Source of the DNA: a virus
Virus record (IMG/VR): IMGVR_UViG_3300027836_000007
Coordinates: 42,813 to 106,812 of that record
Direction: 5' to 3' (one strand)
DNA length: 64,000 nt
Positions within the stretch are counted from its first letter, which is position 1. Each line of letters opens with the position of its first letter. A program made the position numbers and the translations under genes. Below, piece by piece: positions 3,765-25,640 of the stretch. A model generated the notes under the pieces. The model worked only from the letters and a program-made list of their open reading frames with translations. It was not told the DNA's origin and searched no databases.

Positions 3765-3786
3765 AGTAGTCTCCTAATGAACTACT

Positions 3787-3815: not shown

Positions 3816-3823
3816 ACTATTTG

Positions 3824-4615: not shown

Positions 4616-4631
4616 AATAAGTTCTCCACTC

Positions 4632-7530: not shown

Positions 7531-7961
7531 CAGATAGAATAGTATGTAGCGGAGCATTGTTCTACGCCAAGTCTACACGAAGATTTCTACTGTTACAAAA
7601 AGCTCATGGTAAACATACTGGCACGTGGGGATTAGTTGGGGGTACAAACTTACAACACGAAAATCCATGGCAAGGTCTACAGCGTGAAGTCCAAGAAGAA
7701 ATTGGATCTATGCCCGCAGTAATTAAAACAATTCCATTAGAAACATTTGTGTCTAACGATAAAATCTTTAATTTTCACACATACTTGTGTGTAATACAAG
7801 ATGAATTTATTCCTGTATTAAGCGATGAACATTGTGCGTGGGCATGGTCAACTATTGATTATGCGCCAAAGCCCTTACATCAGGGACTGCGTAACAGCTT
7901 TTCAAACAAAACAATTCGTACTAAATTACAAACTGTATTTGATATAGTGGAGTTAATCTAA
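7512..7961 (+). CDS. NUDIX hydrolase
   Basis: Complete Nudix box G-TNLQH-E-NPWQGLQ-REVQEEIG, preceded by GTWGLVGG; later L.DEH..WAW. Confidence 0.9.
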   Translation: METRALTDRIVCSGALFYAKSTRRFLLLQKAHGKHTGTWGLVGGTNLQHENPWQGLQREVQEEIGSMPAVIKTIPLETFVSNDKIFNFHTYLCVIQDEFIPVLSDEHCAWAWSTIDYAPKPLHQGLRNSFSNKTIRTKLQTVFDIVELI

Positions 7962-8533
7962 TGATTAAAAAAGCAGAATGTTGGATATTTCCGACCATTA
8001 TAAATGTTTATAATTTGTTAGATGTGGTCGATCTAACAGAAGTTAACGAAAAAATTGAAGAAACTGAAGTAGTTAACACTTATCATAAGTTGTTTAATGG
8101 CAAGGGTTTAAGAAGTAACTCTTCTCAGTTTTTGGATTCAAACGCAACTCTCAAGAATGCTATTCAGGAATGTATAGATCTGTATGCTGATCAACTAGGA
8201 CTATATCCGTGTAAACTAACCTATAGTTGGTGTAACATATATAGAGACGGCAGTACAATAAAGCCTCATCGACATGAACTCAGTTTAGTAAGCGGAGTAT
8301 TTTATAGTAAAACCGATGATGATTCAGGGCAACTGGTGTTTGATAACCCATGTCAGCCTTTTAAAGTCAATGAAATTTCTACGAGATTAACTGAATACAA
8401 CAGACAAGCATTTAACTTTGAAATTTCACCTGGAGATTTAATATTATTTCCCAGTTGGATGATGCATTATACTGAAAATAATTTTTCTAATCAACGATAC
8501 GTGGTTAGTTTTGACACAGGATTAAAACAATGA
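7961..8533 (+). CDS. Putative Fe(II)/2OG oxygenase, TIGR02466-like (HxH...H)
   Basis: FPT, SWCN, PHRH..SLVSGVFY, GDLILFPSWMMH, RYVVSF. Confidence 0.85.
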   Translation: MIKKAECWIFPTIINVYNLLDVVDLTEVNEKIEETEVVNTYHKLFNGKGLRSNSSQFLDSNATLKNAIQECIDLYADQLGLYPCKLTYSWCNIYRDGSTIKPHRHELSLVSGVFYSKTDDDSGQLVFDNPCQPFKVNEISTRLTEYNRQAFNFEISPGDLILFPSWMMHYTENNFSNQRYVVSFDTGLKQ

Positions 8534-9117
8534 GCTGGTTTATAAAAGATTTAAATTATACAAATGAGCCGTTTGCATACGCAACGGGTGTTCTTACAGA
8601 TGATGAAATAAAATTAGTAGAAATATTGGCTAGCAAAAGTACTATGCAAGGAGATGGCGCTTTAGAAGGCGGTATTTCTGACGAGGCAATACGTAAAAAT
8701 AAAATTTCCTGGCTTGAAGTCTGTGAAGAGTCTAAAGACCTTTACATAAAAATATCAAATGTTGTTCAGCAGCTAAATGAAAGATTTTATAGATACGATT
8801 TAACAGAAATGGAAAATTTACAGTATGCCGAATATCACTCAGATACACTAGGGCATTACACAACACACAGCGATGACGGTTACAAATATAATCTTTTTAG
8901 AAAATTAAGTCTAAGTATTCAACTGTCGGATGAATCGGAGTATCAAGGCGGCGAATTAGTATTCCATCGATTTTCAACAAACCATCCAGAAGCCGCGCCT
9001 AAAACCAAAGGAACACTAATTCTGTTCCCTAGTTATGTACTACATGAAGTAACTCCTGTAACAGAAGGCGTAAGAAAAAGTTTAGTTTCGTGGGTAGTAG
9101 GGCCAAGATTTAAATGA
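8530..9117 (+). CDS. PKHD/prolyl-4-hydroxylase-type Fe(II)/2OG dioxygenase
   Basis: LQYAEY...HYTTHSD, RKLSLSIQLSD..EYQGGEL, FPSYVLHEVTPVTEGVRKSLVSWVVGP. Confidence 0.9.
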   Translation: MSWFIKDLNYTNEPFAYATGVLTDDEIKLVEILASKSTMQGDGALEGGISDEAIRKNKISWLEVCEESKDLYIKISNVVQQLNERFYRYDLTEMENLQYAEYHSDTLGHYTTHSDDGYKYNLFRKLSLSIQLSDESEYQGGELVFHRFSTNHPEAAPKTKGTLILFPSYVLHEVTPVTEGVRKSLVSWVVGPRFK

Positions 9118-9740
9118 GATATTATATTGATACACTGTTTCCAACTTCGGTATATTATTCAGACCTTAACTGTATGGATAAACTGTTTGACTATGAACTC
9201 GATGTCTTTAAAATTTTTAAAGATATTGAAAACGATCCGCATCCGTTTGGCGAAAGTAGTTTAAGCACTTCCTTTTGGCACACTGAACACGGACACTTAT
9301 ACAACGATAGCAGATTTTCTGAGTTATCTTCAACTATACGTAAACAGGCAGTGTTATTCTGTGAAGCTTTGGGATATACTTCTTTAAAAGAAAATCAGTT
9401 AGTGTTCACAAACATGTGGGCAAACTTAATTGGACCTTACGATTATCATGCCCAACATATTCATAGTACTACTGGTAATGCTGCCATTAGTGGCGTATTT
9501 TATGTAGATTCCCCGCCTGGCGCAAAAATAAGTTTTGGTTCGCCTTATAGAGATTCCTACGAACCATTTAAGCCGTGGATTGATAATCCAGCAAATTTTT
9601 CTAAAGTATCATATGATTGTGTTCCTGGAAGATTAGTTATGTTTAAGTCTAATGTTTATCACGGTTATGATAGTCATCGTCAAGAAAAAAACAAAATAAG
9701 TATTCCATTTAATTTATCAATTATACCATATGCCGGTTGA
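9114..9740 (+). CDS. Putative Fe(II)/2OG oxygenase, TIGR02466-like
   Basis: LFPTSVY, MWAN, QHIH...ISGVFYV, GRLVMFKSNVYH, KISIPFN. Confidence 0.8.
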   Translation: MRYYIDTLFPTSVYYSDLNCMDKLFDYELDVFKIFKDIENDPHPFGESSLSTSFWHTEHGHLYNDSRFSELSSTIRKQAVLFCEALGYTSLKENQLVFTNMWANLIGPYDYHAQHIHSTTGNAAISGVFYVDSPPGAKISFGSPYRDSYEPFKPWIDNPANFSKVSYDCVPGRLVMFKSNVYHGYDSHRQEKNKISIPFNLSIIPYAG

Positions 9741-10305
9741 ATATTTTTTTCCTACTCCTATATACTATTCTTTTGTAAAGAATTTAGAATCGATTCACTG
9801 CGAAGTTGATTCTCATCTTGCGTCAGTTAAAGATATTGACTTGATAAATCCCTGGGGAGATACCGTACAAACGACATTTAAGTACAGACAGCATAATCGT
9901 GTTTTAGATAATATGCCTACTCTGCTATCAGAAATTAAAGAAAATTGTCAAAATTTTTTAGAGACAATGAACCATCAAGTTGATAGCGTTGATATCGAAC
10001 AATCGTGGTGTAATATTTCAAACAGAGATTCATTTCAACATTTTCATATACACGGAGCTATGGATTTGTCAGGTGTGTATTACCATCAGACTACAAGTAA
10101 CGACGGGGACATTGTTTTTAGAAACCCGTCGCTAGTAAATAGATTTCATAAATTAACATATAATATTAACAATTCTGTCAACTATAAACCAGAAGTTGGT
10201 AAAATTATATTATTTCCTAGTTTTTTAGAACATGCTGTATTTCATAATACTTCAGACGATAAACGAATTAGTATATCATTTAATATAAACGTAAATTTAA
10301 AATGA
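9730..10305 (+). CDS. Putative Fe(II)/2OG oxygenase, TIGR02466-like
   Basis: FFPTPIY, SWCN, QHFHIH..DLSGVYY, GKIILFPSFLEHAV, RISISFN. Confidence 0.85.
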   Translation: MPVEYFFPTPIYYSFVKNLESIHCEVDSHLASVKDIDLINPWGDTVQTTFKYRQHNRVLDNMPTLLSEIKENCQNFLETMNHQVDSVDIEQSWCNISNRDSFQHFHIHGAMDLSGVYYHQTTSNDGDIVFRNPSLVNRFHKLTYNINNSVNYKPEVGKIILFPSFLEHAVFHNTSDDKRISISFNINVNLK

Positions 10306-10922
10306 AAGAAAATTACAAAATTTTACGAAATTTCTTTAAAAAAGAAAAATGTTTAGAGATGACTACTAAACTTAGTAATTTATTACAACGAGGAATTTAT
10401 AGAAATCCAGATTCGTTATGTACTTTGAGTCCTGCGTTCTACGGAATATTTAATGACGAGATGATAGAAATTCAAAAAAATATCGAAACACTAGTAGGAG
10501 AAGAATTATATCCATGCTATTCGTATGCTAGAATATATCAAAAACACGATATCCTCCCGCCACATACTGACAGACCAAGTTGTGAAATTAGCCTTACCGT
10601 AACTTTAAATTATGAAAAACATACATGGCCAATTTGGTTGATAGATCAGGGACAAGTTACAAGTATTGAACTAGATATTGGGGATATGTTACTGTATAAA
10701 GGAACAGAAGTCATGCATTTTAGACACCCCATGCAAGGACAAGAGTTTCAATATCAAGTGTTTTTTCACTACGTTAAAAAACAAGGCAATTACGCAAATT
10801 ACAAATACGACTTGAATACAAGTTTACTATCAAACTTAGAAGCAGAAGAACAAAATTTCCCAGAATGGACTGATGATCAGCCGGACCGGATCATAAATAG
10901 AGACGATAAGGATACAAATTAA
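10302..10922 (+). CDS. Fe(II)/2OG dioxygenase-like protein (HxD...H)
   Basis: LYPCYSYARIY....LPPHTDRPSCEISLT, WPIW, GDMLLYKGTEVMHFR, QVFFHY; a family common in aquatic phages. Confidence 0.8.
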   Translation: MKENYKILRNFFKKEKCLEMTTKLSNLLQRGIYRNPDSLCTLSPAFYGIFNDEMIEIQKNIETLVGEELYPCYSYARIYQKHDILPPHTDRPSCEISLTVTLNYEKHTWPIWLIDQGQVTSIELDIGDMLLYKGTEVMHFRHPMQGQEFQYQVFFHYVKKQGNYANYKYDLNTSLLSNLEAEEQNFPEWTDDQPDRIINRDDKDTN

Positions 10923-10923
10923 T

Positions 10924-11529
10924 ATGAATACCAAACCATCTGAAATATTTTATTTAGAAGATGTACTAAGACAAAATACGTTTGACAACATTGTTGCCGA
11001 ATTAAAAAAACCAATCTGGCAATACGGTAGAGTTACTAATCCCGATCTGTGGGACGAGGATACAACAGTATTTTGGCAAGCCGATTTAAGTCTAAATACC
11101 CTAGTAGGGGAACAAGCATTTTATGAAATTATTGATAAATTGAACCAAATTGACTCTACTACACAGAATTACCAGTTTAAACTTTATAGTGCTATTGCTG
11201 GCGGTAAAACATTCGGGTTAGATGGCGGAATTCATACTGATAAAGACGTAGAATTTAACAACATGGGCGACGGATTCATGACCTTTTGTTTTTTCCCAAA
11301 CAGAGAATGGAATCCAGAATGGGGCGGCGAGTTTCAGTTCTTTGATCAGGAAGGAAATATAATTGCAACATACTATCCTAAGCCAAACACATGTTTAGTA
11401 TTTGATAGTAACATTCCGCACAGAGGGCTTGCACCTAATAGAGATTGTAAAAAGCTCAGGATGTACCTTTCTTTCAAAACATTTGTGAGTAAAAAATGGT
11501 ACTTGGACCAAAATAACAATGATTCTTAA
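10924..11529 (+). CDS. Prolyl-hydroxylase-like Fe(II)/2OG dioxygenase
   Basis: GGIHTD, WNPEWGGEFQF, PKPN.CLVFDSNIPHRGLAP, LRMYLSFK. Confidence 0.85.
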   Translation: MNTKPSEIFYLEDVLRQNTFDNIVAELKKPIWQYGRVTNPDLWDEDTTVFWQADLSLNTLVGEQAFYEIIDKLNQIDSTTQNYQFKLYSAIAGGKTFGLDGGIHTDKDVEFNNMGDGFMTFCFFPNREWNPEWGGEFQFFDQEGNIIATYYPKPNTCLVFDSNIPHRGLAPNRDCKKLRMYLSFKTFVSKKWYLDQNNNDS

Positions 11530-12238
11530 TTTATTTTCATTACCGATATATAAAGTTAATATTTTAGATCAAATTGATACTGGTAATCTTGAAGAAAAGT
11601 TACAGTCTGAATTTGCTCGATCTTCTTCTGACCCAAGTGGTCTAGAAAAAAATGGCGGAGTAAGCACTTACGATACTAATTGTAATTTACATTTGGAAGA
11701 ATATACAAAAACAATATCAAATATTGTGTTACAACATGCTAGATTATATTGGAAAGTATTAGATGTTGATCCTAGATTAGAACCTAGGATCGATCAGTGC
11801 TGGTCAAATATACATTATAATAAAAGCATTACTATAGAACATTCTCATAGTTTATATCCTATTGTTGCTACCCTATATGTAAAATCTGAAAAACATTCAG
11901 GAGATTTAGTAATGATAAATCCAATGGAGTATGGGCTAACTCATATTCCGTACGGAGTTGCTATTGAAAATAAAACAGAAACTTCTATTAAAGTTTCGAC
12001 GGGAGATTTAGTATTGTTTCCAGGGTGGATTAGACATAAGACAACAGAAAATCTTTCAGATCAATCTAGAATTGTATTAAGTTTTAATATTCATTACCAA
12101 GGAACATATCTTGCGTCAAACAGTGACTATCTTGTGGATCATACGGTACATACTAGCGAAATTGATCAGTTACAGAATAAAATTCTAAAATTAGAATTTA
12201 TCATAGATCATATGCAACGGAGTTTAAAAAATGATTAA
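11519..12238 (+). CDS. Putative Fe(II)/2OG oxygenase, TIGR02466-like, with C-terminal coiled-coil tail
   Basis: CWSN, EHSH, GDLVLFPGWIRHKT, RIVLSFN; tail EIDQLQNKILKLE. Confidence 0.85.
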   Translation: MILNLFSLPIYKVNILDQIDTGNLEEKLQSEFARSSSDPSGLEKNGGVSTYDTNCNLHLEEYTKTISNIVLQHARLYWKVLDVDPRLEPRIDQCWSNIHYNKSITIEHSHSLYPIVATLYVKSEKHSGDLVMINPMEYGLTHIPYGVAIENKTETSIKVSTGDLVLFPGWIRHKTTENLSDQSRIVLSFNIHYQGTYLASNSDYLVDHTVHTSEIDQLQNKILKLEFIIDHMQRSLKND

Positions 12239-12455
12239 AAAACCAAGAAGAATGCATTTAAATGAAAAAATACTACGTGTTCCTACGAAACTTTATGAAG
12301 AGCGACTAGCAATTTGTAAAACTTGTTACGCCTTCGATGCCGCTGGAGAAACAGGAGGTACTTGTAAAATTATAAATGTGCCTGTTACAGCTAAATGCGC
12401 TTTAAAATCTGGTTCTTGTCCGATGGGATTCTGGTCGTCTAATTATGACAATTAA
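12231..12455 (+). CDS. Small Cys-rich, probably metal-binding protein (DUF6171-like)
   Basis: ERLAICKTC...TCKI...KC...SCPMGFW; overlaps both neighbouring genes. Confidence 0.65.
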   Translation: MIKKPRRMHLNEKILRVPTKLYEERLAICKTCYAFDAAGETGGTCKIINVPVTAKCALKSGSCPMGFWSSNYDN

Positions 12456-13146
12456 AATTGGTTACTGTCCTTGGTTTGAAAAAAATAATCGAACTACAAA
12501 TACTGCTCTTAACTATTATGGCTGGGCAGATTTGGCTTACTTTGATTTAGAACCGCTAGATACTTGGGAAAATTCAACAGCAAGGTATCATCAGTGTCCT
12601 GCGTTTGTAAAATATGTAAAAAATACATTTGTATTAAGAAATACAGTAGATTTAGTATTGCACTGGGACAAATATAACCAAGTAGTAAGCACAAATTTAC
12701 CCAAGGATGCGGCCGATGCGTTGGTAAGAACTCACTGGGGAGATTTTGATACTGACAAAGATCGCCCAATTGTTGCAATTAGTAATAGTTTTGTGTTTGT
12801 TGCAGATCAGCCAGTCTATGTCGAATTCTTACCTCCGTTTAATCATATTGATCATTCGTGGAGATTAATTCCCGGAATGTTTAATATCTTTTCGTGGCAA
12901 CGGCCTGTAGTAACTACTATTGAAATGTTAACAGACGAAGTTATTCTAAAACGTGGTCAGCCCATGGCTTATATTAGATTTAGATCTGACAACCCAAGTG
13001 ATAAGTTTGTTTTGAAAAAAATAGAACGTACTGAACAACTAGAACATGCTGTAAACAGTTGTCTCACATTAAAACAATATATGCCAAAATTAAGTTGGAA
13101 AATACATAACGCTATTAATAAGTTAAGGCCTAAAAAATGGCTGTGA
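12445..13146 (+). CDS. Hypothetical protein (QCP-motif, beta-rich; paralogue of 18326..19087)
   Basis: HQCPAF....NTFVL, IPGMFNI..W.RP, LKRGQPMAYIRF; translationally coupled within the cassette. Confidence 0.6.
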   Translation: MTIKIGYCPWFEKNNRTTNTALNYYGWADLAYFDLEPLDTWENSTARYHQCPAFVKYVKNTFVLRNTVDLVLHWDKYNQVVSTNLPKDAADALVRTHWGDFDTDKDRPIVAISNSFVFVADQPVYVEFLPPFNHIDHSWRLIPGMFNIFSWQRPVVTTIEMLTDEVILKRGQPMAYIRFRSDNPSDKFVLKKIERTEQLEHAVNSCLTLKQYMPKLSWKIHNAINKLRPKKWL

Positions 13147-14606
13147 AGAAAGTAGCGATTCTAGGCGGGGGCACTTCTGGCTGGCTAACAGCAATATTTT
13201 TTAAAAAAGTTTGGCCGGCACTAGAAATTACAGTAATTGAAGATCCAAAACATCCTCCAATTATAGCAGGAGAAAGTTGCACAGCACCCTTTGTCGACTT
13301 GTTAGATTTTTTAAATATTGACGTAAACGACTGGATTAAAAAAGTAGATGCTTTTCCTAAATTAGGGGGAAAGTTTGAAGGCTGGGGCCCCAATAATTCT
13401 GATTTTGTACAACCGTTATTTTCTTCTTATAAGAATCGGTGGGATTATAAAAATCCAGAGTTTGGCAAAGATAATGTTCTACTCAAAGGATTACTTGCTA
13501 CAGGTTTACCCTTACATAAGATTACGGTGTCTGGTCATTTATTAGAAAATAATATAACACCTTTTACTTCTACCGGATTCGTAACTAGACCAATGTATCA
13601 TTTTGACAGCAGAAAAAATGCAGAATATTTTAAAAATATCGGCAAATCATTAAACATTAATCTAATTTTATCAAAATATCAGTCTTGTAAAATATCCGAT
13701 AATGGAATTGAAAGTTTAACTTTAGAAGATCAAGAAGTTTGTGCAGATTTTTATATCGATTGTAGTGGATTTAATCAGTTGTTATTAAAAAAAGCATTAG
13801 GAGTTGAATTTAAAAATTTTTCTAAATATTTCCCAGCAACTAGTGTAATAGCTTGGTGGGACGAATCAGATTTAAAACCATATTCAAGAATGATTGCCAT
13901 GGATTATGGCTGGCGATTTAATATAGACTTACGGTCTAGAAGTGGAAACGGTTATGTCTACGACGGGTCTTTAATTTCATCAGAACAAGCACAACAAGAA
14001 GTTGAAAGAAAACTTAATAAATCCGTTAATTTAGTTGCCAAAGCATCTTGGCAAGCTGAAATGGCTATTGAACCTTGGCAGAAAAATGTAATAGCAATAG
14101 GACTTAGTTCAGGATTTTTAGAACCGTTAGGATCAGGTGGTCATACTATGATTGCCTTGACTTTACAACTACTTTCAGAATTTTGGAACCCAGAAAAAGA
14201 AACACACGGCCATGCAACTACGCTATTAAATTCTCGATATAAAGACATTGTTGATGATACTGTAGATTTTATTTCATTACACTATCGAAATAACAGAAGT
14301 GATACTGAATTTTGGAGGAAACATTTATCGGAAGAAACTGTTCCTCAATCGTTAAAACTAAAAATTGAACAACTTAAATCTGGAAACTTTTACGATATTG
14401 GGGTTGCATACTCTTTAGAAAATTATGCCGTAGTATTACAAGCATACGAGTTAATTGATAAATCATTGTTAGCTAATATTATTCGTTACAAAAATGAAAA
14501 GTATTTAGATCAATGTATAGAAGAATATAACTTACTAAACAATCAAGCAAAACTAATAATCAAAGACTGTATTCCTACAACAGAATGGAAAAAATTATAT
14601 GATTAA
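13137..14606 (+). CDS. Tryptophan-halogenase (PrnA)-family flavoprotein, non-canonical active site
   Basis: GGGTSG FAD motif, AGES, AFPKLGGKF, YHFD, FYIDCSGF. WxWxIP appears as WRFNID and FxEPLEStG as FLEPLGSGG. Confidence 0.85.
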   Translation: MAVKKVAILGGGTSGWLTAIFFKKVWPALEITVIEDPKHPPIIAGESCTAPFVDLLDFLNIDVNDWIKKVDAFPKLGGKFEGWGPNNSDFVQPLFSSYKNRWDYKNPEFGKDNVLLKGLLATGLPLHKITVSGHLLENNITPFTSTGFVTRPMYHFDSRKNAEYFKNIGKSLNINLILSKYQSCKISDNGIESLTLEDQEVCADFYIDCSGFNQLLLKKALGVEFKNFSKYFPATSVIAWWDESDLKPYSRMIAMDYGWRFNIDLRSRSGNGYVYDGSLISSEQAQQEVERKLNKSVNLVAKASWQAEMAIEPWQKNVIAIGLSSGFLEPLGSGGHTMIALTLQLLSEFWNPEKETHGHATTLLNSRYKDIVDDTVDFISLHYRNNRSDTEFWRKHLSEETVPQSLKLKIEQLKSGNFYDIGVAYSLENYAVVLQAYELIDKSLLANIIRYKNEKYLDQCIEEYNLLNNQAKLIIKDCIPTTEWKKLYD

Positions 14607-16715: not shown

Positions 16716-16743
16716 TAATTACATATATCACATTAGGAGACAT

Positions 16744-18333
16744 ATGAGTAACGTGAATAAAATAGTGATAGTCGGTGGTGGTAGTGCTGGTTGGATGAGC
16801 GCAGCCACTCTGATTAAACATTTTCCAAATAAAGAAATTTATGTTATAGAAAGCCCCAATGTTCCCACTGTCGGTGTTGGTGAAAGCACTATTGGGCAAA
16901 TAAACGAATGGCTGTACGATCTTGATATCAAGGATGATGACTGGATGAAACAATGTGATGCCAGTTATAAGATGAGCATCAAGTTTACTAATTTCTATAA
17001 AGAAGATGCGGGTGCCTTTCACTATCCATTTGGTGTTCCAGTAGTTGAAGCCAAATTTTTTCCGTACGGAGTCAATGACTGGTATGTGAGGAAATCTGTT
17101 CATCCTGAGATACCGGTTTCTAATTTTGCGGACACATATTTCCCCGCAATGACATTAATTAATAAAAATAAAATTACCGACAATAAAAACAATGAAATAC
17201 CAGGCTGGAACTTTGATCGAGATGTGGCCTATCATTTTGATGCGGCAAAGTTCGGTGCTTGGCTGAGAGATTCGTATGCTGTTCCTAAAGGGGTAACACA
17301 TATACCTGCTGAAGTAACATCTATACAAACAAACAGCGAAGGTGTTGAACATCTTGTATTAGATAATGGCGATAAAGTTACTGCTGATTTATTTTTAGAC
17401 TGCACAGGATTTAAATCTATTATTTTAGATAAGACGATGAAGGTTCCTTTTGAAAGTTATAGTGATTTACTACCCAATAACAGTGCATGGGCTACACGTA
17501 TCCCATTTCAAGATAAAGAAAAAGAATTAGAACCGTTTACTAACTGTACTGCTATAGGTAATGGTTGGGTTTGGAATATTCCGCTATGGAGTCGAATTGG
17601 AACTGGATATGTTTACAGTGACGAATATATTTCAGACCAAGATGCATTAGAAGAATTTAAAGAATATTTACAAAAAGAAAGAGAAGTGCCAATTCCAAAA
17701 TCTGTCATTGACTCTTTAGAATTTAAAAATATTAAAATGCGTGTAGGAATACACAAAGAAATTTATCACAAAAATGTCTGTGGTATTGGGTTAGCTGCAG
17801 GGTTCATTGAACCATTAGAATCTAATGGTTTGTATACTGTTCACGAATTTTTATTAAAATTAGTTGCAATACTTAATAGAAATTCTGTAAGTCAATTTGA
17901 TAAAACTGCCTTTAATGAAGGATGTAGAGGAGATTTTAGAGCTTTTGCTGAATTCGTAGCCTTACACTATGCTATGAGTCACAGGGACCAAACTCCTTAT
18001 TGGCAGGCTGTGCAACATCGTGTATTTCCAAAAACTATGCCGTTGGGCGTATATGCTACATCTGGAATTGACAGTATAATACATAGAAAGTTTGTAAGCC
18101 ATTTATATGATATGGACATGGGCGGCACGTTGATGATAGCAACTGGCATGAACTTGTTTCCGTTTGACAGTAGTCTACTAAAAAGAACGCTGTTTAGAAA
18201 TTCTAATGCAGAATATCTGACCTACTTACAAGATGTTTGTTGGCATAAATGGGATGCTGACTTAGATCAAAGAAATGAATTTGCTGATTCTGCTCCAACA
18301 CTATATCAATATTTAAAAAGCAAATATGATTAA
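16744..18333 (+). CDS. Tryptophan-halogenase (PrnA)-family flavin-dependent halogenase, canonical motifs
   Basis: GGGSAG, GVGEST, ASYKMSIKF, AYHFDA, LFLDCTGF, GWVWNIP, FIEPLESNG; has its own SD AGGAG. Confidence 0.92.
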   Translation: MSNVNKIVIVGGGSAGWMSAATLIKHFPNKEIYVIESPNVPTVGVGESTIGQINEWLYDLDIKDDDWMKQCDASYKMSIKFTNFYKEDAGAFHYPFGVPVVEAKFFPYGVNDWYVRKSVHPEIPVSNFADTYFPAMTLINKNKITDNKNNEIPGWNFDRDVAYHFDAAKFGAWLRDSYAVPKGVTHIPAEVTSIQTNSEGVEHLVLDNGDKVTADLFLDCTGFKSIILDKTMKVPFESYSDLLPNNSAWATRIPFQDKEKELEPFTNCTAIGNGWVWNIPLWSRIGTGYVYSDEYISDQDALEEFKEYLQKEREVPIPKSVIDSLEFKNIKMRVGIHKEIYHKNVCGIGLAAGFIEPLESNGLYTVHEFLLKLVAILNRNSVSQFDKTAFNEGCRGDFRAFAEFVALHYAMSHRDQTPYWQAVQHRVFPKTMPLGVYATSGIDSIIHRKFVSHLYDMDMGGTLMIATGMNLFPFDSSLLKRTLFRNSNAEYLTYLQDVCWHKWDADLDQRNEFADSAPTLYQYLKSKYD

Positions 18334-19087
18334 CTTTATTAAAGAGCTGTTTTCTAAAAAGAAAGAAATTATTACTTTTAGTTGCAAGGACTGGGCTATA
18401 CGAAAATATTCACCGGTTGAATTAGGGGAGCAAAAATTACCTCAGGAATATTTAGATTTACCTGTGGGGAAAATTTGCCCGTTTGAAAGAAAAAATCAAA
18501 GTTATCAACTTTCAGCAAGACAATGTCCGTCGATTAATTCTTTTTTAAAGTATGGATATGTTATCTCTGCTTGGTGCGATATAGAAATTAGTTTTGAAGA
18601 CGATCATGTGTACATCAAATATAGTAATTTAGATTATAATCACGATGTACACACAGAAAATCAATATCAAAAAATTATAGGTGATCAATTTGATGTTAGA
18701 CTAATTATAAAAATAAACAACCCGTGGCATATAAAAACCTTAGATGGATATAGTTGTTTCTGGATGCCAATTTACTATACAAATAAGAATTATCAAGCTA
18801 TTCCTGCTATAGTGGATACTGATTTGATGTTAAATGACTTACCAATTAATCTAGCATTTTTTGAAAAAAAATATACTTTGATAAAAATGGGAGAACCCTT
18901 AGTTAAAGTTATTCCTTTTCGTCGAGAGCCAATTGACGCTGTAAGCAAAAAATACGACTCTGCTGATGAAAATAGATTTTTAAATATCCTGGGATTAAAT
19001 GGACTTAGTAGATATAATTGGCGAGGGTTTATTACTGCAAAAAATAAGTTTAGTTTGGATAAAAAAGACTTAGACATTGAATCATGA
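18326..19087 (+). CDS. Hypothetical protein (DUF6065-like; paralogue of 12445..13146)
   Basis: RQCPSI..FLKYGYVI.AWCD, KINNPWHIKT..GYSC, IPAIVDTD, IKMGEPLVKVIPFRRE. Confidence 0.65.
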   Translation: MINFIKELFSKKKEIITFSCKDWAIRKYSPVELGEQKLPQEYLDLPVGKICPFERKNQSYQLSARQCPSINSFLKYGYVISAWCDIEISFEDDHVYIKYSNLDYNHDVHTENQYQKIIGDQFDVRLIIKINNPWHIKTLDGYSCFWMPIYYTNKNYQAIPAIVDTDLMLNDLPINLAFFEKKYTLIKMGEPLVKVIPFRREPIDAVSKKYDSADENRFLNILGLNGLSRYNWRGFITAKNKFSLDKKDLDIES

Positions 19088-19671
19088 TCAACTTGGAACC
19101 TATCAATCTTTGGCCTAGTTTAATACATAAATCTGTTTACCCTGGAGATTTGACAAATATTTCTAGTAAATTTTTGACACTCTTTAATGAAAATTCAAAT
19201 CATAATTTAGAAAAAAACGGTGGCAAGTCTACATACAGTACTGTAAACAACCTAATTACCGACCCAGTGTGCGGCAAACTAAAAGAATGGTTAATTCAAC
19301 AAAGTAAACTAGTTTGGGATTTATCTAATTTTGTTGATCGTCCAAGACGTGTGCATAGAAGTTGGGTAAACTTACATCCTCCAGGGGCATGGACTGATGA
19401 ACACGACCATGCAATGTGTCATCAAAACATTGTTGTTTATTTAAAACAACCTGAATTAGGTGGTAACATAATGTTTAAAGATCCTCTACAATACACATTT
19501 TCTGGATTTCCAAAAAATAATAAAAATGACTGGACAACATTGGAAGTTAAACAGAACGATGTAGTTTTTTTTCCTGGATTTTTACATCATAAAACAGAAA
19601 TTAACTCTAGTCAAGAAGATAGAATGGTTATGACTCTAACTATATCCGTGGATATATTTGCTGATGAATAA
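19084..19671 (+). CDS. Putative Fe(II)/2OG oxygenase, TIGR02466-like
   Basis: SWVN, EHDH, GGNIMFKDP, DVVFFPGFLHHKT, RMVMT; shares LEKNGG.STY with 11519..12238. Confidence 0.85.
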   Translation: MINLEPINLWPSLIHKSVYPGDLTNISSKFLTLFNENSNHNLEKNGGKSTYSTVNNLITDPVCGKLKEWLIQQSKLVWDLSNFVDRPRRVHRSWVNLHPPGAWTDEHDHAMCHQNIVVYLKQPELGGNIMFKDPLQYTFSGFPKNNKNDWTTLEVKQNDVVFFPGFLHHKTEINSSQEDRMVMTLTISVDIFADE

Positions 19672-20254
19672 TTATAGAAACGTAACATTATTAGGAAAAA
19701 TTCCACTACTCACTAGTCAGTGGTCAGAATTCGATAACTATAAAAAAGACATCGTTGATCTTTGTTTAAAACTTGAAGTTCCTAATACGATAGAATCTAA
19801 TATAGCAGTTCATGCGAAATCAGATTTGTGGGAATCGTCTTTCGATTTTTTAGAAAAACAAACAGATATTAATAATTTAAAATTATGGCTGATACAGGAA
19901 TCTACTGAATTAATCAATAATTTTAACAATAGTAATTACAGAACAGTTATAACAGAAAGTTGGGCACATGTTACTAGGGCAAGTGGATATCATAAACCTC
20001 ATTATCACTGTGGCTCAACTTGGTCCGGCATTTTTTATGTTGCTGGTGAAACTAATAAAGGAGGAAGTAATAATTGGTACTTGCCTTATTACGTAGAAAG
20101 ACAGCCTGGGTTAGAATTTGCAGATAGTATGTACACTGTTAATTGCCAGCCCGGAACATTAGTGTTATTTCCCAGTATGCTACTTCATGATGCTGATGTG
20201 TATCAAGGAACCCAACCGAGGATAGTTATTTCTTTTAATTCCATATGCTTATAA
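19658..20254 (+). CDS. Putative Fe(II)/2OG oxygenase, TIGR02466-like
   Basis: ESWAH, HKPHYH..STWSGIFYV, GTLVLFPSMLLH, RIVISFN. Confidence 0.85.
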   Translation: MLMNNYRNVTLLGKIPLLTSQWSEFDNYKKDIVDLCLKLEVPNTIESNIAVHAKSDLWESSFDFLEKQTDINNLKLWLIQESTELINNFNNSNYRTVITESWAHVTRASGYHKPHYHCGSTWSGIFYVAGETNKGGSNNWYLPYYVERQPGLEFADSMYTVNCQPGTLVLFPSMLLHDADVYQGTQPRIVISFNSICL

Positions 20255-20841
20255 TAGACGACGTTATTGTGTTAGACGATATTGTTCCTAAACAATATCA
20301 AGATTTGATAGAAACTCAAATGTTAGGTGACAATATACATTGGCACTACATGAGAGACATAACCTTTGATGTTGAAAAACTCAATGAGTTAAAGGTTACT
20401 GTTGCTAAACCTGCATTTGCTCACAAATTTTACGACAGGACTGCTGGGATTATTAGCCCTGGATATGGATTAGTATTGCCCATTGTGTACAATGCTTGCG
20501 AAAAAATTAAGTTTCATGTAAACGAAGTTATTGCCGCAAGGAGTTTTTTAACTATTCCCCTTCCAAATCTAGAAAGCGCCCTAGATCATCCGCATGTTGA
20601 TAGAGAAGTTTCTCACATAGTAGTTCTATATTATGTTACAGATTCTGACGGAGATACTGTGATATATGACAAAACTTTTAGAGATGTCTCTCCTGATCAT
20701 CTTAGAAAAGAAGATTTACAAATTTTTAAAAGTGTTACGCCTAAAAAGGGAAGAGCCATCGTATTTGATGGCTCTCGATATCACACTAGCACTAGGCCAA
20801 CTACTGGACACAGATGTGTAGTTAACTTTGGTGTATGGTAA
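20245..20841 (+). CDS. Fe(II)/2OG dioxygenase-like protein (HxD...H)
   Basis: HPHVD, VVLYYV.DSDGDTV, PKKGRAIVFDG..YHTS, RCVVNF. Confidence 0.85.
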   Translation: MLIIDDVIVLDDIVPKQYQDLIETQMLGDNIHWHYMRDITFDVEKLNELKVTVAKPAFAHKFYDRTAGIISPGYGLVLPIVYNACEKIKFHVNEVIAARSFLTIPLPNLESALDHPHVDREVSHIVVLYYVTDSDGDTVIYDKTFRDVSPDHLRKEDLQIFKSVTPKKGRAIVFDGSRYHTSTRPTTGHRCVVNFGVW

Positions 20842-21237
20842 TTATGTTGGTGGAAGGTAATTTCCTGGATCGCCTTCTGCACCTGGCTTAGGCACCGCAC
20901 TTTTAACTGTTTCAATCGACTTAAACCATTGGCCAGTAGGCGATATAGTTCCTGTATCGCGAATCTCTTTAAACAACATATCTAATTGATCTCCCATTGG
21001 AGGATACGCTCTCATTCGTTGCATATAAAATGGCTCAACTGGATTTCCAAATTCGTCTCTAGAATGGGAGTGTGGGTCAGAAAATTCGCCAGTTTCCTCA
21101 CTATATCCCCAGCCAGTTTCACAGTTATCAGGGCAATCAACCCAGAAGAAATCTGTAGTTGTTTCAAAATCAGTTTCATCTGGTCCTAGTATCTGAGTTA
21201 CTTGCCAAAATCTTTTATCAATTAATGCTCTTTTCAT
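20842..21237 (-). CDS. Tail-fibre assembly/chaperone-like protein
   Basis: WVDCPD...GW.Y followed by QRMRAYPPMGDQLDML...W...I..VK..VPKP, a motif typical of genes downstream of phage fibres. Start moved from 21348 to MKRAL at 21237 (SD AGGA; removes overlap with the upstream gene). Confidence 0.6.
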   Translation of the reverse strand: MKRALIDKRFWQVTQILGPDETDFETTTDFFWVDCPDNCETGWGYSEETGEFSDPHSHSRDEFGNPVEPFYMQRMRAYPPMGDQLDMLFKEIRDTGTISPTGQWFKSIETVKSAVPKPGAEGDPGNYLPPT

Positions 21238-21253
21238 GTTCCTAATTCCTATT

Positions 21254-22201
21254 TTATTTATACTCGTAGACGATACAAATTCCGCCCTTGCCATTTCTGC
21301 CGCCTTGGCTGTTGTGTGCCGGGTTAGTTGCTGTGCCGCCTGATCCAAAGGCTGCTACATCTTGCGGCTGCTGACCTCCATGTCCACTAGGTTGGCCGCC
21401 TCCAAAGAAACTTATTCCGCCATGTCCTGGAGCACCGTTACCGTTATACTGATCTTGATTATTATGGCCACCACCTCCACCACCCCATACATTTAGTTGC
21501 CCAGAAGATCCAAGGCCACCCAGGCCACCGTTATGTTGTATGTGAGCATTGGCGCCACCACCACCGGTAGCCGCTACAAATGCACCAAAACTAGTAGTGC
21601 CTCCGCCTGGGCTAAATCCAAAGTATACTCCGCCAGCGCCACCACCACCAACAGTAACCGTAACTGTAGTAATAGCTGTAGCATCTATTACTCTTTCAGC
21701 ATAACCGCCTGCGCCACCTGATTCAGCATACGCACGGCCGCCTCCTCCTCCTCCGCATACAATCACATGTAGTAATCTTACATCAGGACCAGATTTAGTA
21801 TAAGTACCAGGGCCTGTAAAAGTATAGACATTTTTTATTTTTTCGCCAGCTTTCAAAATGTTTTCTCGAGCTGCATAATTGGTCATTAATGTACCGTTGG
21901 CGGCTGTACTTTCAGGATCATCTGTTACATTTGAAATAGTTGTTCCGTTGACAACAATTGCTGTTCCCGTTGCTGCCAAAGGCGTTACGGTACCTACAGA
22001 CGTTACACTCATAGAACCGCCACTTATAGCAACGTTGTTTGAAGCCTGTTTTCCTAGTGTATCAATCACTTTGGTAACAACTGCTGAGGCATTTCCTTGA
22101 AACGCTTTACCGTCTTGTACATTAATTGCAAATTCTCCTGCTATTAAAGAACCAGGTACTTGCGTTGTTGTGTTAGAATTTTTAAATTTATATTTTGGCA
22201 T
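21254..22201 (-). CDS. Short tail fibre/adhesin with C-terminal glycine-rich domain (paralogue C)
   Basis: N-terminal GEFAIN..DGK module; C-terminal VIVCGGGGGG...GGAGGYAE...VTVGGGG...GGTTSFG...GICIVYEYK. Confidence 0.75.
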   Translation of the reverse strand: MPKYKFKNSNTTTQVPGSLIAGEFAINVQDGKAFQGNASAVVTKVIDTLGKQASNNVAISGGSMSVTSVGTVTPLAATGTAIVVNGTTISNVTDDPESTAANGTLMTNYAARENILKAGEKIKNVYTFTGPGTYTKSGPDVRLLHVIVCGGGGGGRAYAESGGAGGYAERVIDATAITTVTVTVGGGGAGGVYFGFSPGGGTTSFGAFVAATGGGGANAHIQHNGGLGGLGSSGQLNVWGGGGGGHNNQDQYNGNGAPGHGGISFFGGGQPSGHGGQQPQDVAAFGSGGTATNPAHNSQGGRNGKGGICIVYEYK

Positions 22202-22207
22202 AATTTT

Positions 22208-23713
22208 TTACCTTAGTTCATATACAATACAGATACCACCACGACCAACACTGCCTTCGCCACCTGACCCGCCGACTGATCCAGTACCGCCTGCGCCCGG
22301 TGCGCCATGGTCTGCTGGTCGAGAAGCACTATGATGACTATTTCTAGATCCTCCAAAGAAGCTGGAGCCTCCGCGACCCACAGCTGAATTACTAGGATTG
22401 TTTACACCATTATTGTGACCCATGCCGCCGCCGCCGTATGCATTTACATCGCCGTTTGAGCCGATACCGCCATGCCCTCCTATGTGACTACCGTGCTGGT
22501 TAGCACCATAACCGCCGCTAGCACTTAGATACGAGCCAAAACTAGTAGTGCCTCCATTGGCGCTAACTCCAAAATAGTTGCCACCGGCACCGCCGGTGCT
22601 TGAAACTGTCACAGTAATTGTTGAAATGCTGGCCGCGTCAAATGTTCTCTCAGCATAACCTCCAGAGCCGCCACTTTCTCCATAGCCGCGGCCACCGCCG
22701 CCGGCGCCAACACAGATAACTCTAATTCTTCTAACATCGGTGCCTGATTTGGTATAAGTAGAACTTGCGGTATATGTAAAAACATTCTTTACTAATCCTC
22801 GGGTGTTACTATCAATATATGTTTTTATTGCATTTTGTGTTGCAATGGTACTGGAAGAGGCATCAAGAGCTGTAGAAGTTGATACACTGGTAAATGCTTT
22901 ATTGCCGCCTCTAATCCACAGTCTTACATGAGAAAGATATACTGCTTCGTCCGCTGGGGCTTGTTCTACGTTGGAAAGATGTCTAGCTGAAAATGTTGAT
23001 GGAGTATGTGCATACCATCCGGTATCAATAATAAAATACCCATTGCCGCCAAGACCTTCTGGAGCACGACCTACGCCGCCCCATGGCGCTGTTGAATACC
23101 ATCTATTTCCGTGCCAATTTAAAGTTGTTCCTGAAGCAGTTGTAGCTATTACTGGATAGCTTGACGCACTTTTAGTAAAAGTAGTTCTCGAAACTTCTGC
23201 GCCACCGTTGTCTGTAGTGAATAACTGGTTAGTTTCGCCGTCAACGCTGTCTACTAAATGCCAAAATACTTGATATCGTACTTCAGTGTGCGCGGGGATT
23301 CCTGTTAGGTTCAATGTGTAACTTCTAGGCCCTGCGGTCCAGCCGTGAGCACTAATGTTGCCCAAGCCGCCAAATTCAGTCATAGTAGTTGTGGTTGCAT
23401 CGTTCCATACTGCTGTATTTCCTGCGGCATTGCCACCTTCATCATACCAAATTCTTTCTGCCGGTAATCCTAAAGATGTAAGATTCGCATTTGTTGTAGA
23501 AACTGTTGTTGCATCAATTGTTCCGCCAGTGATTGTTATAGCATTTGAATCTTGTCTTCCTAATGAATCACCAATTAATACCGGATTAAGTGAGGCATTT
23601 CCCATCCAAAGTTTAGAATCTGCAAGGTTTACAGCAAGTTCGCCTTGCTCTAAACTTCCAGCTGCCGGAACCGCCGAAGCAGTGGTTGATGTTTTAATTT
23701 TTATTTTAGGCAT
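22208..23713 (-). CDS. Tail fibre/adhesin with inserted lectin-like domain and C-terminal glycine-rich domain (paralogue B)
   Basis: Same N-terminal GELAVN..D.K module and Gly-rich C-domain as its neighbours, plus a roughly 190-aa Trp/His-rich central insert. Confidence 0.75.
   Translation of the reverse strand: MPKIKIKTSTTASAVPAAGSLEQGELAVNLADSKLWMGNASLNPVLIGDSLGRQDSNAITITGGTIDATTVSTTNANLTSLGLPAERIWYDEGGNAAGNTAVWNDATTTTMTEFGGLGNISAHGWTAGPRSYTLNLTGIPAHTEVRYQVFWHLVDSVDGETNQLFTTDNGGAEVSRTTFTKSASSYPVIATTASGTTLNWHGNRWYSTAPWGGVGRAPEGLGGNGYFIIDTGWYAHTPSTFSARHLSNVEQAPADEAVYLSHVRLWIRGGNKAFTSVSTSTALDASSSTIATQNAIKTYIDSNTRGLVKNVFTYTASSTYTKSGTDVRRIRVICVGAGGGGRGYGESGGSGGYAERTFDAASISTITVTVSSTGGAGGNYFGVSANGGTTSFGSYLSASGGYGANQHGSHIGGHGGIGSNGDVNAYGGGGMGHNNGVNNPSNSAVGRGGSSFFGGSRNSHHSASRPADHGAPGAGGTGSVGGSGGEGSVGRGGICIVYELR
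22674..22725. repeat. 52-bp exact direct repeat, copy 1 (copy 2 at 24198..24249)
   Basis: ctttctccatagccgcggccaccgccgccggcgccaacacagataactctaa is identical in two fibre paralogues. Confidence 0.95.
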
Positions 23714-23719
23714 AATATT

Positions 23720-24682
23720 TTATTTGTACTCGTAAACTACGCAAACGCCGCCTTGACCATCAAATCCTCTGTCATAGTTGTTGGCGCCGTTATTATAAAA
23801 ATTTGATCCTGTGCCGCCTGCGCCAAACGCACTGTTATCCTGCGATCTAGCAGTGTAGTGTACTCCTGGAGTAGACCCACCAAAGAAACTGTTTCCGCCA
23901 TGCCCTGGATTGTGATGACTTGATGTGTGGCAGTTAATGTGGCCACGGCCGCCGCCGCCGTGAAAGTTCAAATTACCGCCTGAGCCTATGCCGCCTTGGC
24001 CGCCGGTGTGGTCTTGATTGTTATTTGCGCCGGCACCGCCACTTGCTGAACAAAATCCGCCAAAACTAGTAGTCCCGCCGCTAGGGCTATAACCATAATA
24101 CACGCCACCGCCGCCACCGGTGCTTGAAACTGTCACAGTAACAGTAGTTATACTAGTGGCGTCTATCCATCTTTCTGTAAAGCCGCCGGCGCCGCCGCTT
24201 TCTCCATAGCCGCGGCCACCGCCGCCGGCGCCAACACAGATAACTCTAAGTTGTCTTACATCAGTGCCTGATTTAGTATAAGTGTTACTGCTGGTATATG
24301 TAAAAATATTCTTTAAAGATCCTCTTCCTAAATTAACATTTCCCTGCACAGCAAGTCTTGTTGGTAATGTAGTATTGCTAGAACCTAATCCGTCGGCGTT
24401 TGCAACAGCATTGATTGTGGCTCCACTGTTTAGTTGCAAGTTAGTTGTAGAAATCTGTGCAGGCACTGTTGCCCCAATACTAGTACCATTAATTGTTCCG
24501 CCAGTAATTGCCACAGAATTAGCAGCATTCCTTGCCGCAGTTCCAACTATTTTTACAACGCCGCCCGCAGTTCCAACAAACATATTACCATCGCCGGTGT
24601 TCATAGCAAGCTCGCCTACGTCTAAGCTGGCAGGTACTGCTCCTGGTGTAGTACTACTTTTTAGTTTAATTCTTAATGGCAT
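23720..24682 (-). CDS. Short tail fibre/adhesin with C-terminal glycine-rich domain (paralogue A)
   Basis: GELAMNTGDG N-module; RVICVGAGGGGRGYGESGG...GVCVVYEYK C-domain. Confidence 0.75.
   Translation of the reverse strand: MPLRIKLKSSTTPGAVPASLDVGELAMNTGDGNMFVGTAGGVVKIVGTAARNAANSVAITGGTINGTSIGATVPAQISTTNLQLNSGATINAVANADGLGSSNTTLPTRLAVQGNVNLGRGSLKNIFTYTSSNTYTKSGTDVRQLRVICVGAGGGGRGYGESGGAGGFTERWIDATSITTVTVTVSSTGGGGGVYYGYSPSGGTTSFGGFCSASGGAGANNNQDHTGGQGGIGSGGNLNFHGGGGRGHINCHTSSHHNPGHGGNSFFGGSTPGVHYTARSQDNSAFGAGGTGSNFYNNGANNYDRGFDGQGGVCVVYEYK
24198..24249. repeat. 52-bp exact direct repeat, copy 2
   Basis: Identical to 22674..22725. Confidence 0.95.
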
Positions 24683-25260: not shown

Positions 25261-25283
25261 GTTTTATCTCTCTATAGTTTTAA

Positions 25284-25640
25284 TTATGATGTTGATGTTT
25301 CAATGCCGTAAATGTTTACATTTACTGTTGCCGTCGAAGCCCACACCGTAATATATTTTGCGCCACTTGCAGCAGCTAAAACTAAGCCTGTACGCTCAAA
25401 TACGCCGCTTGGTGTAATAGCTGTTCCAAATTCGATAGCTTCACTAGCTACTAACGAACCAGTTGGTGTTCCAGCACTTCCTAAACTAGCACCTATATAC
25501 AAACGAATAGTTGCCGGCGCAGATGTACTAGTATTAGTAAAACTAACGTTAACTACGCTGTATGTATTATTAGGTACTACGTAGGTTGTAGTAGCAGTCG
25601 ATGCTGCCGGTGTACCTGTGTATAAAATTCCTGTTGCCAT
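25284..25640 (-). CDS. Small beta-rich virion adaptor-like protein
   Basis: YVVP...SVVNVSFTN...IRL...IEF...GVFERTGLVL...VN.YGIE; SD GGAG; similar layout to 46704..47036 and 55590..55913. Confidence 0.6.
   Translation of the reverse strand: MATGILYTGTPAASTATTTYVVPNNTYSVVNVSFTNTSTSAPATIRLYIGASLGSAGTPTGSLVASEAIEFGTAITPSGVFERTGLVLAAASGAKYITVWASTATVNVNIYGIETSTS

Follow-up and report, generated by a model that had tools for sequence, protein, structure and literature searches.

We analysed a stretch of viral DNA of 64,000 nucleotides (hereafter the window; positions 42,813 to 106,812 of IMG/VR record IMGVR_UViG_3300027836_000007), which forms the terminal 64 kb of a contig of 106.8 kb rated by CheckV as 29% complete, a value that points to a genome of approximately 370 kb. 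Its subject here is a cassette of 17 consecutive plus-strand open reading frames (ORFs), named g01 to g17, that fills positions 7961-20841 and is composed of 11 genes for proteins with the Fe(II)/2-oxoglutarate (Fe/2OG) oxygenase fold, three for members of the VirX1 family of flavin halogenases, two for proteins of a family here called QCP and one for a small Cys-rich protein. It faces a converging operon of three glycine-rich fibre genes. Judged from gene families and gene order, the cassette is an expanded, inverted copy of the enzyme array of phage Syn9, placed on what appears to be a jumbo-phage backbone; the array type is already known from Syn9, and what is new is the enlarged, inverted version on such a backbone.

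The neighbouring genes of the cassette abut or overlap by 4-14 nt, with sole gaps of 1 nt (10922/10924) and 28 nt (16715/16744), and its G+C content (0.32-0.34) lies below that of the flanks (0.39-0.46). Upstream, and also on the plus strand, the run continues gap-free from a virion structural protein gene in the gp14 position (4658-6070; phrog_11591, E 1.8e-88), a gene for a long form (486 amino acids, aa) of the gp15 tail sheath stabiliser (6070-7530; PF16724, T4-gp15_tss, E 1.2e-24) and a NUDIX hydrolase gene (7512-7961; PF00293, E 1.7e-13). At the other end, g17 stops at position 20841 and the converging ORF at 20842, that is, the two operons meet base to base. An earlier reading of the window, made from its letters and referred to below as the sequence-only reading, had listed the same 17 genes, nearly all overlapping or abutting, in an unbroken run from gp14-gp15-NUDIX to the base where the fibre operon ends, and the ORF coordinates together with Pfam, phrog and motif searches agree with it on each of these points. 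It had also noted an absence of nonribosomal peptide synthetase (NRPS), polyketide synthase (PKS), transporter and DNA-modification partners, and profile searches of the cassette proteins indeed found no domain of these kinds, methyltransferases included; Pfam scans revealed no scaffold-building genes in the cassette either.

Nine of the oxygenase-fold genes match the Pfam families 2OG-FeII_Oxy_5 or 2OG-FeII_Oxy_3 above the gathering score. Seven of these belong to TIGR02466/PF13759, namely g01 (7961-8533; 67 bits to PF13759), g03 (9114-9740; 51.2 bits), g04 (9730-10305; 70.5 bits, and 84.5 bits to TIGR02466), g07 (11519-12238; 56.2 bits), g12 (16080-16715; 40.1 bits), g15 (19084-19671; 46.3 bits) and g16 (19658-20254; 62.5 bits), and two match PF13640: g02 (8530-9117; 54.7 bits; H-S-D...H), a P4H/PKHD-like protein that resembles PKHD/YbiX-type hydroxylases by family profile (NF003974, E 1e-18), and g06 (10924-11529; 36.1 bits), which has a weak match to the FlmC family. 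The count of 11 is reached with the PF13640-like g17 (20245-20841), whose Pfam score of 23.7 bits is below the cut-off and which keeps H-V-D...H and matches phrog_274 (E 1.2e-32), and with g05 (10302-10922), which has no Pfam match and was recognised through phrog_2954 (E 1.6e-43) plus an H-T-D...H triad. The families of g05 and g17 are labelled 'ferrochelatase' and 'endonuclease V', respectively, in phage records, and we rejected both labels, since the oxygenase triad is present in both proteins.

The canonical H-x-D...H is kept in g02, g05, g06 and g17. In the PF13759 paralogues, which share 19-25% mutual identity and have a W, H-x-H, F and H common to all seven, its place is taken by an invariant H-x-H...H, as in the structures 2RG4 and 3BVC. 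A three-His iron site of this kind would be unusual within the 2OG oxygenase superfamily, and we know of no reaction assigned to the PF13759/TIGR02466 family. A Fe/2OG halogenase identity was rejected, the H-x-A/G triad being present in none of the oxygenases. Among the cassette proteins, Pfam scans gave no match to the AlkB or TET/JBP families, nor to a JmjC (MINA/NO66-type) member, which is not defining for every array.

The halogenase-family genes g10 (13137-14606), g11 (14599-16083) and g13 (16744-18333) are full-length matches to Trp_halogenase (PF04820; 258, 333 and 349 bits, respectively; E 2e-76 to 6.5e-104). In a 25-sequence alignment that includes all three, G11, G12, G13 and G16 (GxGxxG) and K76, the catalytic Lys equivalent to PrnA K79, are invariant. 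The remaining motifs are intact in g11 (W-M-W-R-I-P and E-P-L-E-A) and g13 (W-V-W-N-I-P and E-P-L-E-S), while in g10 WxWxIP is replaced by W-R-F-N-I-D, and E-P-L-E-S, whose Glu is presumably the equivalent of PrnA E346, by E-P-L-G-S, the second Glu having become Gly. The product of g13 aligns end to end with VirX1 of cyanophage Syn10 (PDB 6QGM, E 3.6e-117), shares with it GxGxxG, the Lys, WxWxIP and E-P-L-E-S, and is approximately 40% identical to the Syn9 orthologue. We regard g11 and g13 as probable halogenases and g10, which differs from VirX1 by the loss of WxWxIP and of the second Glu, as a divergent family member that, because of this loss, may not be a halogenase. VirX1 itself forms trimers, has an active site that is open and unusually large, and prefers iodide; neither a gene cluster nor a native substrate has been assigned to it (PMC8407142). 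No flavin reductase of family PF01613 was found on the 107-kb contig, which is a genome fragment, and host reductases can serve. Two side observations concern this family: a short halogenase-family protein of approximately 400 aa (PF04820, ~77 bits) is present in some relatives without Gly-rich fibres (L049, L057, L059, L061, G004 and G005), where its gene adjoins gp15 (~1.9-3.1 kb after it in L049, L057, L059 and L061) or lies far away, and the sole halogenase match of S-PM2 (NC_006820.1, 121319-122608) has an in-frame TAA and may be a broken gene.

The QCP proteins g14 (18326-19087; phrog_7084) and g09 (12445-13146; phrog_17480), the latter of a divergent subtype, have no Pfam match. In an alignment of 31 members, g09 among them, Cys67-Pro68, Asp85, Gly189 and Pro191 are invariant. 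An AlphaFold2 (AF2) model of g14 (pLDDT 79) retrieved with Foldseek, among the matches listed, only dUTPase/dCTP deaminase entries (E from 5e-4), and in a VIA-align comparison against representatives the best match was the dUTPase 8y1q_A (Z 10.9, rmsd 4.0, 134 residues); the top 22 were dUTPases, dCTP deaminases or viral proteins of dUTPase-like fold (plus TLP20, Z 5.6), the next match falling to Z 3.4, and the viral proteins pp71, ORF10 and TLP20 are within this list. On the strength of this model, the predicted fold of the QCP proteins is that of dUTPase/dCTP deaminase. Motif patterns like those of dUTPases are kept around the invariant Asp, with the motif-3 Asp absent in the g09 subtype. 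The family comprises 3818 cluster representatives at E <= 0.001 in a full HMMER search (a word-indexed search gave 21 metagenome-derived proteins), touches DUF6065 weakly, and its gene adjoins a halogenase gene in nearly all mapped loci. The small Cys-rich g08 (12231-12455; 74 aa; phrog_13558; a weak match of 26.2 bits to DUF6171) adjoins the g09-type QCP gene in relatives as well.

As in arrays of the Syn9 type, oxygenase and halogenase genes stand in tandem (11 plus 3) and the dUTPase-fold gene g14 adjoins the halogenase gene g13. By best-hit assignment against the usual marine gene order, g13-g17 is the conserved Syn9-type core in inverted orientation; the genes beyond it, g01-g12, are another two of the halogenase family, one more for a dUTPase-fold protein, the Cys-rich gene and eight for oxygenases.

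The converging operon, on the minus strand, is composed of g21 (23720-24682) and g19 (21254-22201), both glycine-rich short fibres, of g20 (22208-23713), a long form of the same, and of a small protein of 131 aa in the position of a chaperone (20842-21237). The fibres match PF21722 with 36.3 bits (g19), 31.4 bits (g20) and 23.9 bits (g21, against a cut-off of 24.3), and the Gly-rich domains of g21 and g19 share 59% identity. The frame of the small protein is readable from 21348, its likely start is at 21237, and it matches phrog_1787 from residue 40. The AF2 model of g19 (pLDDT 79) has as its best Foldseek match the Pam3 fibre (7ypx_A, E 1.2e-8, TM 0.52/0.64, 23% identity), ahead of the tail tip of Bxb1 and the Gly-rich domains of ALK/LTK. 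The receptor-binding fibre of Pam3 is gp24, and its trimeric chaperone is encoded by the gene that follows, gp25 (PMC9608196). Since the g19 model folds like Pam3 gp24 and the small gene follows the fibres as gp25 does, 'Gly-rich adhesin plus chaperone' seems a reasonable label for the converging operon, the chaperone part being named from position alone. In the window and in relatives alike, the Gly-rich fibres are preceded by two small Thr/Ala-rich proteins (s192 and s118, of 192 and 118 aa; 24682-25640, minus strand). Giant ORFs of 3761 aa (25662-36947) and 3094 aa (37003-46287), also on the minus strand, lie immediately upstream of the small fibre genes, and giant 'structural proteins' are found at the same place in marine relatives.

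The sequence-only reading had pointed to the adjacency of the array and the Gly-rich fibre operon, and a tie between the two, both physical and evolutionary, was recovered in relatives, in a shared mosaic boundary and in joint absence. A search with gp15 gave 80 relatives (60-97% identity), in which the island behind gp15 holds anything from no gene to a complete array (0 to 17 genes). Whole-record searches showed that enzymes adjoin the fibres in relatives that have fibres, and that four relatives (G003, G006, G010 and G012) have neither Gly-rich fibres, nor halogenases, nor PF13759, save one sub-cut-off trace in G006; all three are also absent from Vibrio phage 2.275.O, the closest cultured relative. 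Compared with IMG/VR contig 3300020205_002066, the window is 66-79% identical over gp14-gp15-NUDIX and 95-99% identical from ~7.9 kb, with values close to 98% across the cassette and on into the fibres. The boundary is sharp, at 7800-8000 of the window. From this shared jump in identity we infer that cassette and fibres have one recent history, distinct from that of the neck genes. Against S-RIM44 and Syn9, the identity is 40-47% for the halogenase, 36-43% for the fibre and 30-38% for the g05-type oxygenase, and 26-28%, over part of the length, for gp13 and gp15, which suggests a block exchanged between phage lineages. The same array-beside-fibre layout is present in Syn9 (gp38-gp54), S-RIM44 and Sf-CH11, and in HTVC008M an ORF with 33% Gly is followed by a convergent array of five oxygenases.

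We also looked at the association from the side of the fibres. IMG/VR was scanned with a Gly-rich-domain profile derived from array-linked fibres and the best 80 loci were kept, 73 of them with at least 3 kb downstream; this profile scan replaced a single-protein fibre scan, which gave 4 loci (tblastn of the Gly-rich domain against phages gave no match, the low-complexity filter being the probable cause, and the 8 weak records that tblastn of the chaperone-position protein gave were not enough to count co-occurrence). A halogenase is present in 73/73 of these loci, at no more than 3 kb in 62, with the usual order fibres, chaperone, halogenase(s), dUTPase-fold, PF13759, PF13759, PF13640-like; fibres and array are co-directional in 58 and convergent in 15. 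A strict rule of one fibre to one halogenase was rejected, as three fibres occur with 1, 2, 3 or 4 halogenases. The figure of 73/73 is inflated by the selection of the loci and, because of this bias, 17 complete isolates were searched for a PF21722 fibre and a full-length halogenase: both are present in four (Syn9, S-SSM7, P-SSM2 and HTVC008M), the fibre only in five, the halogenase only in two and neither in six. This split makes the halogenase-fibre tie a loose one, and a strict co-occurrence rule was rejected on the same grounds. Halogenases away from fibres are present in S-RIM44, Sf-CH11, Syn1, S-PM2 and P-SSM2. PF13759 and PF13640 genes stand at several sites in 17/17 isolates, and in eight of the nine with a PF21722 fibre the oxygenase array starts no more than 5 kb downstream of it, so that the adjacency proposed by the sequence-only reading holds better for oxygenases than for halogenases. 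S-SM2 is without PF21722, and its four-oxygenase array is still placed between two genes annotated as tail fibres. Since all these genomes share synteny, the occurrences are not independent events. The association of array and fibres is real, in that neighbourhood, inheritance and absence are shared; it is no proof of an enzyme-substrate relation.

The heptamer ATAAATA, taken as a late-type box, occurs 7 times in the window (4633, 4646, 10893, 21255, 36968, 61655 and 61899) against 29 expected, a four-fold depletion, and most copies are just upstream of gene starts. On the plus strand, one (4646-4652) stands 5 nt before the ATG at 4658 of the gp14-position gene and another, internal to the cassette (10893-10899), 25 nt before g06. 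On the minus strand, the sole exact TATAAATA of the window (21255-21262) precedes the chaperone-position gene, a CTAAATA box (24726-24732) precedes the first fibre gene, and the copy at 36968 is just upstream of the 3761-aa giant. Sigma-70-like sites are not enriched in the window (88 found, 78 expected). In 54 non-redundant marine loci, late-type boxes are present no more than 80 nt upstream of the chaperone in 28/39 cases, of the first fibre in 24/54 and of the halogenase in 19/75, against a background of 3.8%; the downstream oxygenases have them in 5/121 and 0/66 cases. This distribution of motifs fits late transcripts that would begin at the gene for the fibre, the chaperone or the halogenase and run on across the oxygenases. 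Late expression, as claimed by the sequence-only reading, is in agreement with the position of the array downstream of the boxes at 4646 and 10893, and with the marine relatives, lateness itself being read from the motif alone. The gap of 24 nt that separates the gene for gp13 from the divergent gp14-position gene contains two copies of ATAAATA back to back, and the 5 nt left before the ATG at 4658 would allow hardly any leader. A terminator-like hairpin for the fibre operon (20751-20776, minus strand; 10 pairs and a T-rich tail) is placed within the 3' end of g17, and one for the cassette (20940-20960, plus strand; 9 pairs) within the 3' end of the chaperone-position gene. The operons converge without a spacer, and each of the facing hairpins (20751-20960) thus lies inside coding sequence, at the 3' end of the gene opposite.

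The major capsid protein gene (57759-58919, minus strand) encodes a protein with 72% identity to that of Vibrio jumbo phage 2.275.O, ~70% to those of PA5oct-group and Sinorhizobium jumbo phages, and 36% to that of pelagiphage HTVC008M (Kyanoviridae in its record). This proximity to jumbo phages and distance from Kyanoviridae suggests that the source is a jumbo myovirus like PA5oct and Vibrio 2.275.O, not a classical cyanomyovirus. No psbA was found on the contig, and megablast of the region against phage records gave no match. The gene for gp13, the head-tail adaptor (3066-4633), is on the minus strand, opposite to gp14-gp15, and adjoins a deoxynucleoside monophosphate kinase gene; this arrangement is unlike that of T4 and marine cyanomyoviruses.

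The reading that we rank first, as the best of those considered and as a tentative choice, is late tailoring of the adjacent fibre proteins. The cassette genes would be transcribed late, with virion assembly, and the enzymes would act on protein side chains, most probably those of the co-inherited fibres while these fold on the chaperone. In the variable tips, Asn, Asp, His, Pro and Lys are examples of residues that the oxygenases would hydroxylate, and the halogenases would halogenate Tyr, Trp or His, the trimeric dUTPase-fold protein being the partner of the halogenase. A fuller proposal, in which virion-maturation enzymes tailor the variable Gly-rich tips late, the dUTPase-fold trimer serves to dock the halogenase trimer onto the fibre, a trimer as well, and the chemistry, alongside sequence, tunes host recognition, is possible and, in our view, doubtful. 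Characterised relatives of the P4H/PKHD and JmjC families mostly modify proteins. The P4H/PKHD-like members of the cassette and the JmjC member, of ribosomal-oxygenase type, in the Syn9 array (PMC2938197) were counted in favour of protein tailoring, and so were the trimeric state and open active site of VirX1, its lack of an associated biosynthetic cluster (PMC8407142) and the absence of scaffold-building genes from the cassette. The sequence-only reading had named the system 'RiPP-like' (after ribosomally synthesised and post-translationally modified peptides, RiPPs), a label that we dropped: profile searches of the cassette proteins showed no RiPP recognition element (RRE) domain or leader peptidase, no leader/core precursor was seen, the intergenic space leaves no room for a hidden small gene, and the sole small ORF is the 74-aa g08.

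Several points stand against fibre tailoring. To our knowledge, modification of such fibres has never been observed, and Pam3 and Bxb1 are not known to need enzymes of this kind for their Gly-rich fibres to function. The Syn9 record flags gp33 and gp34 as virion structural, not the Gly-rich gp38 and gp39. The closest solved relatives of the PF13759 paralogues, 2RG4 and 3BVC, are both uncharacterised. A twelfth PF13759 oxygenase gene (26209-26502 of the contig, G000:C1, minus strand) is placed ~25 kb upstream of the array, outside the window. The multiple oxygenase sites in every isolate, the loose halogenase-fibre tie, the selection behind the 73/73 figure and the shared synteny weigh in the same direction, as do the in vitro substrates of VirX1, the weaker matches of the PF13759 paralogues, the idea of a hyperplastic region and the dUTPase-fold and NUDIX genes, all taken up with the alternatives below. 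We found no literature that links phage oxygenase/halogenase arrays to adjoining fibres.

The enzymes could instead act on a small molecule, yielding a halogenated, hydroxylated metabolite from an amino acid in free form or from a metabolite of the host, with the position beside the fibres being incidental. Such amino-acid-derived secondary metabolites are what Iyer et al. (2010; PMC2938197) proposed for the homologous array of Syn9, in a paper that did not discuss the fibres adjoining it; VirX1 halogenates small (hetero)aromatics in vitro (PMC8407142), the weaker profile matches of the PF13759 paralogues lead to the small-molecule enzymes PtlH and SyrB2, and bacterial neighbourhoods with a dioxygenase, a halogenase and a TonB-type receptor were predicted to yield siderophore-like products (PMC2938197). 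Nevertheless, the arrays examined lack genes for peptide synthetases, carrier proteins, precursor supply and export, the late-type boxes and the co-directional packing with fibre genes would be odd for a metabolic pathway, and the presence of the module in cyanophage, pelagiphage and jumbo lineages, that is, across very different hosts and backbones, speaks against a host-specific metabolite; we take this reading to be somewhat unlikely. Position might also be all that array and fibres have in common, the gap between fibres and neck being a recombination hot-spot in which enzymes with unrelated targets, e.g., translation factors or ribosomal proteins, hitch-hike with mobile fibres. This gap could simply be a hyperplastic region, as documented in cyanomyoviruses (PMC3037559), and the variation of the island after gp15 among close relatives, the scattered oxygenases, the halogenases away from fibres, the loose co-occurrence in isolates and the low G+C content of the cassette all agree with it. 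A hot-spot is expected to hold mixed cargo, however, and what stands beside the fibres instead is a small, recurring set of families that keeps its core order on backbones with 36% identity between their capsid proteins, in the jumbo lineage array and fibres are jointly present or absent, and both share one mosaic boundary; we therefore consider an effect of position only as unlikely.

Chemistry directed at nucleotides or DNA, in which the dUTPase-fold proteins and the NUDIX hydrolase handle nucleotides modified or repaired by the oxygenases and halogenases, draws on the dUTPase/dCTP-deaminase fold of the QCP proteins, on their dUTPase-like motif patterns and on the NUDIX gene that abuts the cassette, all of which could point to nucleotides and away from fibres. 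It includes the older, AlkB-like idea of DNA repair, put forward for the Syn9 oxygenases by Weigele (2007), as cited in two later papers (Clokie et al., PMC2984593; PMC3037559), of which the former also relays Weigele's idea of antibiotic protection. Against it stand the missing motif-3 Asp of the g09 subtype, the frequency in viruses of non-enzymatic dUTPase-fold proteins such as those among the g14 matches, the failure of the Pfam scans to detect AlkB or TET/JBP, the poor fit with late-type promoters and the absence of NUDIX from the marine versions of the module, and we give it little credence. Least probable of all, and hardly credible to us, is a drain on 2OG, by which the oxygenases would serve as auxiliary metabolic genes that steer the nitrogen-status signalling of the host via NtcA. 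Control of this kind was proposed for cyanomyoviruses, which have up to 5 oxygenases and 2 prnA genes each (Sullivan et al., 2010; PMC3037559), but eleven paralogues from several families, as divergent as the PF13759 set, would be needless for burning one co-substrate, the halogenases and the dUTPase-fold partners would be left unexplained, and the module is also found in a phage of SAR11 and, on a contig without psbA, in a jumbo backbone whose closest cultured relatives have Vibrio, Pseudomonas and Sinorhizobium as hosts.

For about twenty years the 2OG oxygenases and PrnA/VirX1-type halogenases of cyanophages have been listed as 'auxiliary metabolic genes' without a known substrate. That a Syn9-type enzyme set and a defined type of receptor-binding fibre travel as one block, on a backbone far from cyanophages, turns a vague question about substrates into an experiment feasible on the cultured carriers Syn9, Syn10 and S-RIM44. 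Were the fibres found to be modified, they would be the first enzymatically tailored receptor-binding protein of a phage and a native substrate for VirX1-type halogenases, a new layer of host-range determination would be added, and abundant marine 'metabolic' viral genes would have to be reclassified as virion-maturation genes; were they found unmodified, the published reading as secondary metabolism would gain weight.

Among known systems, large tandem arrays have been published, so that the background given in the sequence-only reading, which named single genes in aquatic T4-like phages, does not cover them: the Syn9 array comprises 10 dioxygenases, 2 halogenases and a dUTPase-fold protein with a conserved Cys (Iyer et al., 2010; PMC2938197), and S-SCSM1 has 24 2OG-Fe(II) oxygenase genes (PMC9602691). 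S-SCSM1 likewise holds many divergent PF13759/PF13640 paralogues in one genome, but its oxygenase genes are reported to be spread over the genome and the paper mentions no halogenases. In certain bacterial operons, beta-hydroxylase/PhyH-type dioxygenases stand beside tail-collar or secreted Gly-rich, collagen-like proteins (Iyer et al., 2010; PMC2938197), i.e., beside a presumed fibre-like substrate, as here; those operons are cellular, contain other enzyme families and sulfotransferases, and their substrates are predicted. With Pam3 gp24/gp25 (PDB 7YPX/7YFW), the g19 model shares a TNF-like domain together with a glycine-rich one, and a small gene follows the fibre in both, whereas gp24 has no match to g19 at the level of sequence and the fibre paralogues here are three. 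We know of no oxygenase or halogenase genes linked to the Pam3 fibre.

The closest counterpart is the array of Syn9 and Syn10, which matches that of the window in families and core order: gp38 and gp39 are Gly-rich, gp40 holds the chaperone position, gp41 and gp42 are halogenases and gp43 has the dUTPase fold, followed by numerous oxygenases unrelated to one another, and its paralogues, as in the window, are old and divergent rather than recent duplicates. The window differs in that its array is inverted, converges on the fibre operon and is placed after gp15-NUDIX, whereas that of Syn9 stands before gp13; in its gene content, with three genes of the halogenase family, two for dUTPase-fold proteins, one for a Cys-rich protein and no detected equivalent of the JmjC member gp49 of Syn9 (PF08007, E 1.3e-16); and in its backbone, which appears to be that of a jumbo phage and not of Kyanoviridae.

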